This document shows positions 614 through 1,774 of a DNA stretch of 64,000 bases, in pieces (the stretch's first letter is position 1; each line of letters opens with the position of its first letter). The translations under genes were made by a program, and so were the position numbers. The stretch is from the sequence record PV682947.1. The stretch is one strand, 5' to 3'. Source of the DNA: Escherichia phage WPEC4. The notes beneath the pieces are model-generated. The model was given only the letters and a program-made list of their open reading frames with translations, was not told the DNA's origin and made no database searches.

Positions 614-964
614 ATGCAAGAGAGTAAAAATGTTCCGTTAAGTAGTTTACGTCTAATGAAGTTTTACAAAGCTTGGCTTGCTGGTGAGGTAGAAGGTCAC
701 ACAACGAGTGGTTTGTGCATATGTCTGATTAAGTATGTAGAGGGAACATACCCTGATGAACTGTTACCTCGTCTACAACAAGAGATGAAATCCCAGTTTA
801 TTGGTGCAGGATTGGATTACAATTTCCCGTTTAATGAAGGCGGTTATGAGGAATACACCTTCGAACATAAAAAACATATTTGCCATAAAAACAAACATCG
901 TATACAATGGGTGCTAGATAGAATTCAGGATTATGAAGGAATTCCTTCCTCCTCAAATTATTAA
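614..964 (+). CDS. Member of 5-copy paralog family (about 110-130 aa); C-terminus runs into repeat unit at 941
   Basis: ATG with GAGAGGAG RBS; shares FY..YLAW..G.P, GLC.NL, LPFN, CHLNVDR.NWV-like motifs with 58166, 59444, 62426 and 63185 ORFs; last 8 codons and stop lie inside an inserted repeat unit. Confidence 0.55.
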   Translation: MQESKNVPLSSLRLMKFYKAWLAGEVEGHTTSGLCICLIKYVEGTYPDELLPRLQQEMKSQFIGAGLDYNFPFNEGGYEEYTFEHKKHICHKNKHRIQWVLDRIQDYEGIPSSSNY

Positions 965-1172
965 CGAAACCGCATGACTAAATCTTGGTTCAGATATAAC
1001 CTCTGCTACAGTCACATATTTTATGAATCTCCCCTAAATACTTTTCTAAGATTTTACGACCCTCGTCGATAAGGGCTTGTTCTGTAGTAATTTCCATTCC
1101 TTCCTCCTCAAATTATTAACGAAACCGCATGACTAAATCTTGGTTCAGATATAACCTCTGCTACAGTCACAT
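941..1172. repeat. Mini-array of three ~77-bp units (types M2, F, M2) of the same families as the 38.9-45.6 kb array
   Basis: Unit 941-1016 equals 1096-1172 equals the native 3' end of the gene at 1173-1248; unit about 1019-1094 equals the inverse of 45586-45660. Confidence 0.8.
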
Positions 1173-1183
1173 TTCCTTCCTCC

Positions 1184-1774
1184 TCAAATTATTAACGAAA
1201 CCGCATGACTAAATCTTGGTTCAGATATAACCTCTGCTACAGTCACATATGTATCGTGCAGCCAAAAAGATTCTACTCTACAAACACAAATACCGTTGAT
1301 AATGAAATCTACACAGGCTTTATTATTTTCGCACACTTGTTGACTATAAACAACCCCTAAAGAGTCATAAAGTGATCTCACTGTTGCTACCATTTCATCT
1401 GTTTCGTCTTCCTGTGAAACAAAGAAAACGAATACAGACAAGTTATTAGCGAAAGTATTGCTATTCTCTACTTCAACCGACTTACAAGGTAAAAAGGAGT
1501 AATATTTACCGTTAGGTATCAATTTCGCCTCAACCTGGTTAAGTATGCTTTGAGATGGTTTTGTTACATAAAAAAGATTTTCTGTTGGGTTTTCAACATT
1601 ACTCCTTACTATGCAACGAGTGGGGTTCGAAGGATCAAAAACATGATCGAAATCGACACACACAGGTAAGTTAACAACTTTAAACTTTTTGCTAAGAATG
1701 CTTACTGCTGTAAAAATCAAACCAGCATTTATTTTGCCAGTGAAAGTTGAACGCATAACTACTCCTCGGATCAT
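1184..1774 (-). CDS. hypothetical protein
   Basis: 196-aa ORF; its 3' terminal about 76 bp (1173-1248) is the source sequence of repeat unit M2. Confidence 0.5.
   Translation of the reverse strand: MIRGVVMRSTFTGKINAGLIFTAVSILSKKFKVVNLPVCVDFDHVFDPSNPTRCIVRSNVENPTENLFYVTKPSQSILNQVEAKLIPNGKYYSFLPCKSVEVENSNTFANNLSVFVFFVSQEDETDEMVATVRSLYDSLGVVYSQQVCENNKACVDFIINGICVCRVESFWLHDTYVTVAEVISEPRFSHAVSLII

Follow-up and report, generated by a model that had tools for sequence, protein, structure and literature searches.

T4-type phages carry genuine short intergenic repeat cassettes composed of promoters and stem-loops. CRISPR arrays, and the mini-arrays borne by phages, are likewise built of tandem units of regular length, some of which match the phage's own genome. 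Fixed lengths are also a property of the de Bruijn graphs built by SPAdes-type assemblers, in which unitigs and bubble edges share a k-mer with their neighbours, measure at least k+1 nt and form bubbles of 2k+1 nt around single-nucleotide polymorphisms (SNPs); the largest default k of SPAdes for 150-nt reads is 77, and contigs are emitted down to k+1. At very high coverage, recurrent errors assemble into false branches of such graphs, which fragments phage assemblies (Philipson et al. 2018, PMC5923482).

We analysed a 64,000-nt stretch of the deposited genome of Escherichia phage WPEC4 (PV682947.1), hereafter the window, which holds a mini-array of exact repeats at 941-1250 and a 6.6-kb array at ~38.9-45.6 kb that repeats the units of the mini-array. 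Both resemble the T4-type cassettes in placing short sequences at several points of a genome, as do natural repeats of 41-49 nt within the window (34102-34142, 35629-35695, 36581-36647 and 38292-38358), which lie between small genes and carry the hairpin GGCGGCAATGGTGCCGC. The natural repeats also occur in the relative ABPW7 (~138366-138406 and 144885-144938) and are therefore genuine terminator- or promoter-like intergenic cassettes, unlike the arrays. They are imperfect (61-100% identity), intergenic, form a GC-rich hairpin and are conserved in ABPW7, whereas the array units are perfect 77-mers from coding sequence that are not repeated in relatives. In the sibling record WPEC6 the natural repeats also coincide with contig breaks. 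The likeness of the arrays to CRISPR arrays is superficial, since there is no alternation of repeat and spacer and the units abut one another in both orientations, all of them flanks of six sites; a CRISPR-like array was rejected on these grounds, the units (12 types) having no constant repeat between them.

The resemblance to graph edges is closer. As in unitigs, the ends of WPEC4 segments share exact 77-mers, segments measure 78 nt at the least and paths with a single SNP 155 nt; unlike normal assembler output, in which such pieces are separate FASTA records, they are here joined into one 'complete genome'. The window also breaks at six micro-heterogeneous sites, much as coverage-induced fragmentation breaks phage assemblies at false branches, although the account of that effect (PMC5923482) describes fragmentation and advises subsampling and does not deal with concatenated fragments in deposited genomes. 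The mini-array is almost certainly an artefact of assembly or finishing, namely leftover pieces of a k=77 de Bruijn graph lying between two wrongly joined contigs, a reading that draws on four observations: the k=77 edge structure, the exact set of edges, the scrambled synteny and the absence of the arrangement from relatives.

Sequence and synteny of the mini-array

The mini-array lies between an open reading frame (ORF) at 614-964 (+) and one at 1184-1774 (-) that points toward it. The M2 unit (TTCCTTCC...GTCACAT, 76 nt) is present in three copies (942-1017, 1097-1172 and 1173-1248), with unit F (~78 nt, ~1018-1096) between the first two, and Tandem Repeats Finder returned a period of 76 with 2.0 copies at 100% identity for 1097-1248. 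The order M2, F, M2 followed by native M2, put forward in the original prediction, was thereby confirmed as a description of the sequence. Translation of ORF 614-964, which ends ...DYEG-IPSSSNY*, likewise confirmed that its last 8 codons and stop lie inside the first M2 copy. The division into these units stood only in part: the repeats are present, but the natural cuts fall after 1018 and after 1172, giving pieces of 78 nt (941-1018) and 154 nt (1019-1172) ahead of a large block whose first base is 1173. That the same unit families occupy two distant loci was borne out by further copies at 39251-39560 and 45196-45273, and the inverted F said to border the large array was found at 45583-45659, where the block opens with the reverse complement of unit F's 77-mer; this is the reverse complement of the 77-mer to the left of site B (L; Table 1), the true left neighbour of 1019-1172. 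Exact repeats of 76-79 nt are far above chance: across all 148.6 kb of the clean relative ABPW7, not one exact repeat reaches 40 nt.

Judged by sequence comparison, the window is from a Phapecoctavirus, a phAPEC8-like E. coli myovirus, with blocks out of order with respect to more than 60 collinear relatives. Positions 941-4000 matched more than 60 GenBank phages at 99-100% identity and positions 1-940 matched the same phages at 95-100%, yet in those relatives the two stretches are ~24-26 kb apart: in phAPEC8 they lie at 6409-7348 and 31843-34748, and in ABPW7 position 706 is the last of the first stretch and 26864 the first of the second. The expectation that the 614 and 1184 genes would be directly convergent in relatives therefore failed, the two being not neighbours but separated by that same distance. 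In phAPEC8 and WPEC6 the counterpart of 1184-1774 is followed by a same-strand gene of 109 aa that has unit F as its first 26 codons; the order F-M2 is thus a native gene junction, present once in each. WPEC6 is 100% identical to the window over 941-4000 and is collinear at site B, with the gp182-like and gp181-like genes adjacent and the unit in single copy, as in phAPEC8; the unit is likewise single in 62 other relatives.

The joins themselves have no counterpart. Neither 940/941 nor 1172/1173 was found as one contiguous match in any GenBank phage, the M2-M2 junction is absent from all 64 related records, and in IMG/VR it gave 0 exact hits against 2 for the native junction. In ABPW7 the native tail of the 614-964 homologue reads ...DYEG-EKNDK*, while in WPEC6 position 940 is followed by a different piece and the tail, again chimeric, differs from both.

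With the clean ABPW7 genome (OP562383) as reference, the whole window was mapped into blocks that join at only six ABPW7 positions, those of sites A to F (Table 1). The switches of synteny coincide with the segment ends, at 940/941, 1172/1173, 8018/8019, 38935/38936 and 45582/45583. At 8018/8019 two large blocks are joined without small pieces (ABPW7 33790 to 111119) and the genes on both sides are truncated; this is another false join. Position 1 of the window is also the base with which the records of several independent relatives begin, namely Schickermooser and the three SA_NWU phages, which suggests a physical genome end or a shared convention; this would account for a dead end in the assembly graph at that point. 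Two of the relatives bear labels of other hosts, Acinetobacter phage ABPW7 (OP562383) and Campylobacter phage B15 (MG065650). Both are 99.4-99.9% identical to E. coli Phapecoctavirus here, and on this sequence similarity their host labels look doubtful.

Table 1. Blocks, graph edges and polymorphic sites of the window, with ABPW7 positions. Edges are given as found/predicted.
Feature	Window position	Strand	ABPW7 position	Details
Contig-like block	1-940	+	148414-148647 + 1-706	Collinear with relatives
ORF with chimeric C-terminus	614-964	+		941-964 (IPSSSNY*) from pasted piece
77-mer just left of polymorphic site A	864-940	+		End of block 1-940
Mini-array	941-1172	+		Two site-B edges
Site-B edge A to R, 78 nt (k+1), first M2	941-1018	+		Allele-A 77-mer to common right-hand 77-mer R
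Site-B edge C to A, 154 nt	1019-1172	+		Haplotype C-A (native allele); unit F plus second M2
Large contig	1173-8018	+	26942-33790	Carries gene 1184-1774 (-)
Block	8019-38935		111119-142280	
Large array	38936-45582	.		58 abutting edges of sites A-F, both orientations; pieces 78-86 or 146-158 nt
Two alternative site-B edges, 155 nt each	39251-39560	+		Haplotypes C-G and T-A
Site-B edge C to G to R, 155 nt	39251-39405	+		Haplotype C-G
Site-B edge L to T to A, 155 nt	39406-39560	+		Haplotype T-A
Site-B edge L to C, 78 nt, fifth and last	45196-45273	+		L 77-mer to allele C
Large contig	45583-64000	-	26942 down to 8529	Reverse complement
Site A	864-940 and array copies		707	GAAGGA[G/A]A[C/G/A]AAAAATG; 6/6 combinations and one indel variant; edges 14/14 (78-153 nt)
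Site B	1095-1096		26941	TTTC[C/T][A/G]TTCC; 3 combinations (CA native, CG, TA); edges 5/5 (78, 78, 154, 155, 155 nt)
Site C	8018 and array copies		33790	AAAAT[C/T]T[C/T][C/T]GTC; 7/8 combinations; edges 17/17 (78-154 nt)
Site D	8019 and array copies		111117	TTGT[C/T][A/G]TT[C/T]TTC; 5 combinations; edges 11/11 (78-155 nt)
Site E	38935 and array copies		142306	CATGA[A/G]ATC[A/G]CCG; 4/4 combinations; edges 8/8 (4x81 and 4x151 nt)
Site F	42971-43871		57072	TTTTTT[A/C]TTTTT[A/C]ATG; 4/4 combinations; edges 8/8 (4x83 and 4x149 nt)

Repeat lengths and the k=77 graph

The lengths of maximal exact repeats in the window, counted on both strands, peak at 77 nt (88 pairs) and fall to 31, 11 and 5 pairs at 78, 79 and 80 nt, the decay that chance extension predicts. 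Shorter repeats of 71-76 nt arise because the end 77-mers concerned differ in an allele. There is no maximal repeat from 81 to 147 nt, and above that lie two inverted cases of 148 nt: a self-palindrome at 41735-41882, and two site-F stretches that are mutual reverse complements. The palindrome at 41735-41882 is perfect and results from two site-C edges placed side by side with opposite orientation; it is an artefact, and could pass for a large inverted repeat.

Only isolated positions, ~77 nt apart, carry repeated 77-mers. The strict form of the test, that no 78-mer should be repeated, did not hold before segmentation, when the window showed 170 repeated 78-mers, all of them chance extensions of 77-mers by 1-3 nt or parts of the two 148-nt inverted cases. 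We then cut the window at breaks of collinearity, optimising each cut within ±8 nt, and obtained 63 segments, the small ones of which are 78-86 or 146-158 nt long; the shortest is 78 nt (k+1) and many, including 941-1018, have exactly that length. After segmentation neither a duplicated 78-mer nor a repeated internal 77-mer was left in the window. The value of k is sharply defined by this analysis, with 16 violations at k=77 against 212, 138, 149 and 218 at k=74, 76, 78 and 80. Thirteen of the 54 terminal 77-mers have no partner inside the window; the missing partners probably lie in the part of the record beyond the 64 kb.

The compacted k=77 graph was also built forwards, from the haplotypes seen at each site, and each edge that it predicts was searched for in the window. 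The predicted lengths are 77+d or 155-d, where d is the SNP spacing, and each of the 63 is present with precisely the sequence and length expected, most of them exactly once; six (three of site C and three of site A) match at two overlapping or neighbouring positions. At site B, three haplotypes predict five edges, among them the 941-1018 edge, which matches exactly and once. Its neighbour, 1019-1172, is 100% identical to ABPW7 26864-27017 and equals the native junction of the gp182-like and gp181-like genes. Together these two edges tile all 232 of the 232 bases of 941-1172 (78 + 154 nt), and 58 abutting pieces tile 6644 of the 6647 bases of 38936-45582, the 3 left over falling at two site-A pieces.

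Directly after the mini-array comes the large contig, of which the first 77 nt are the R 77-mer ('native M2', 1173-1249) and the last 77 nt the 77-mer on the left of site C. At both loci, according to the original observation, the native source of one unit lies right beside the array; the adjacency is real, but its reason is that a large contig starts or ends with a branching 77-mer common to the small edges.

Six polymorphic sites and the origin of the arrays

Mapped on ABPW7, each unit of the arrays corresponds to the ~77 nt that flank one of the six sites on its left or its right. Alignment of all unit copies with their neighbours showed 2-3 variable positions per site within 2-7 nt, almost all of them biallelic, and most or all allele combinations occur as separate pieces. 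From copy to copy, a unit's outer end moves by the SNP spacing exactly, which is the behaviour of a k=77 de Bruijn graph around clustered SNPs.

These features are best explained by the following route. Reads at the six sites would have carried 2-3 SNPs within 2-7 nt in several combinations, leaving the graph unsimplified, and the genome would have broken into large contigs ending at the six sites and dozens of bubble edges of k+d or 2k+1-d. Edges and contigs would then have been strung together, with the 77-nt overlaps untrimmed and the true order ignored, and deposited as a 'complete genome'. Two of the five site-B edges would thus have been written between a 940-nt contig, which ends at site A, and a 6.8-kb contig, which starts at site B. 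The appearance of M2-F-M2-M2 results because both small edges end in, and the contig starts with, nearly the same 77-mer, the three end 77-mers being offset by at most 1 nt. We infer a SPAdes-type assembler and a finishing step that concatenated all pieces, the order of which is neither length-sorted nor a valid walk through the graph; the variant edges presumably persisted through very deep coverage or a mixed stock. No reads are predicted to span the pasted junctions.

An assembler artefact had been one of two explanations offered originally. It was essentially right, although what was chained was not reads ending at specific sites but whole k=77 edges with their overlaps kept. The other, growth of the arrays from their flanks by copy-and-join, is unsupported, the edges fitting a k=77 graph and the relatives lacking the arrangement.

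Three other origins were weighed, which even taken together are very unlikely. Chimeras formed in the library, by head-to-tail ligation of short fragments from sites prone to breakage and then faithful assembly of the ligated molecules, would accommodate units in both orientations with many combinations of neighbours, and six discrete sites are conceivable as places of physical breakage or nicking. However, no common motif (restriction, nick or recombination site) is visible at the six breakpoints, and both ends of each unit would need break points exactly 77 nt apart. Moreover, many junctions simply join two neighbouring edges of the graph, so that one 77-mer stands there twice with 100% identity, and the tiling with predicted edges leaves no untemplated junction bases. 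We therefore regard such chimeras as highly improbable. The related idea of ligated nick-bounded fragments, raised from the ~77-nt unit size, was dropped, as were Golden-Gate-like 4-nt linkers or untemplated additions, the 3-4 'variable' bases being SNP alleles combined with different edge start points.

A genuine array, for which the phage would copy ~77-nt pieces from the flanks of the sites and join them at two loci, is extremely improbable. The units are exact, occupy two loci 38 kb apart and abut a native copy, and three sibling GenBank records also hold arrays of them; those records, however, come from one laboratory and so are not independent. A biological copying process would also have to tie the unit length to 77 with single-nucleotide precision, yield pieces that follow 77+d and 155-d, and supply every edge predicted by the graph, nearly all exactly once. 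The blocks between the arrays are, moreover, scrambled relative to more than 60 relatives, with genes truncated, and WPEC6, identical at the locus, has no insert there. Consistent with this, the arrangement was found neither in independently sequenced relatives nor in IMG/VR contigs.

We attach as little probability to a real local tandem duplication of M2, a 76-nt segment with a gene end and ribosome-binding site, independent of the large array. Small duplications are indeed seen at gene boundaries and the 2.0-copy tandem repeat at 1097-1248 is perfect, but the repeated 76 nt are the overlap, offset by one base, of the allele-A 77-mer (1096-1172) and the R 77-mer (1173-1249), as expected between consecutive graph edges (the end of the 154-nt edge and the start of the large contig); the left side, moreover, joins DNA that is 26 kb away in relatives, and the junction is missing from the 64 related records and from IMG/VR. 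A MITE- or IS-like insertion was rejected, the pieces being native site B (100% identical to ABPW7 26864-27019) and the sites having no common motif, and so were tRNA-sized units, the whole window giving 0 Rfam hits at the gathering score and 0 tRNA or tmRNA genes.

If the arrays are assembly artefacts, the alleles that gave rise to them could be real subpopulations, systematic errors at extreme depth or the product of cross-sample mixing. At sites B and D the variable bases include the second and third bases of the start codons of the gp182-like gene (B) and a TelA-like gene (D; ABPW7 110004-111116), so that ATG becomes ACG or ATA; for the gp182-like gene the two changes are carried by the C-G and T-A edges, respectively, in the large array. 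Double mutants of the site-B and site-D start codons are absent from the observed haplotypes, as would be expected if sequencing errors arose independently at very high depth, or if there were real subpopulations each with a single knock-out hit. Among matching records the site-B ACG and ATA variants occur only in WPEC1 and WPEC2, the other 62 giving one match each with one mismatch, that is, without either variant, in keeping with the native ATG read directly in ABPW7, WPEC6 and phAPEC8. We consider it unlikely, though by no means negligible, that the six sites are real hot spots of variation in the phage stock. Were they true high-frequency alleles, this would suggest that host EC3.18 repeatedly selects against particular gene products, perhaps in escape from a host defence, or else that a localised mutational process is at work. 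Escape from CRISPR at type I-E or I-F PAMs was looked for by eye and set aside: the trinucleotides are often GAG or ATG, the enrichment is weak, and several variants, such as GAG to AAG, would remain functional.

Sibling WPEC records

The closest records to WPEC4 are WPEC6 (PV763039), WPEC1 (PV659873) and WPEC2 (PV691511), all from one laboratory in Thailand with E. coli EC3.18 as host; we found no paper on the WPEC phages or on this host. The three siblings are 155-161 kb long (WPEC1 and WPEC2, 159-161 kb) against 143-152 kb for almost all other relatives listed, the exceptions among these being EP57 (131 kb) and REC (156 kb). The 940-nt stretch with which the window begins (1-940) lies at a record end in all three. 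None of the three is identical to the window, the joins beyond position 940 being different. In WPEC6, positions 1-50000 are also scrambled, at partly different positions that include sites A, C and F, and positions 140000-155327 show the same signature of 71-81-nt repeat lengths, at sites A, C, E and F and others, without B or D. Dozens of tiny 'hypothetical protein' coding sequences (~30-60 aa) are annotated across the array regions of that record. In WPEC1 and WPEC2, BLAST placed the units at 5-19 places per record.

The source record thus appears to be a scrambled concatenation despite its label of 'complete genome', and WPEC1, WPEC2 and WPEC6 probably are too, on the basis of scrambling and the k=77 signature in the parts of WPEC6 examined, and of excess length and the many places occupied by the units in WPEC1 and WPEC2. 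The three sibling records likely need correction.

In conclusion, neither a new repeat system nor copy-and-join is at work at this locus, which also has no true convergent gene pair and no donated stop codon, and the value of the finding is one of data hygiene. The sibling records exceed most relatives by 6-12 kb. Such records can introduce false repeat families, paralogues and synteny breaks into downstream scans, and our results provide a quality-control flag for the WPEC records. They also yield a cheap filter that can be reused elsewhere: a maximal exact repeat pinned at k, a minimum unit of k+1, and pieces of k+d and 2k+1-d.
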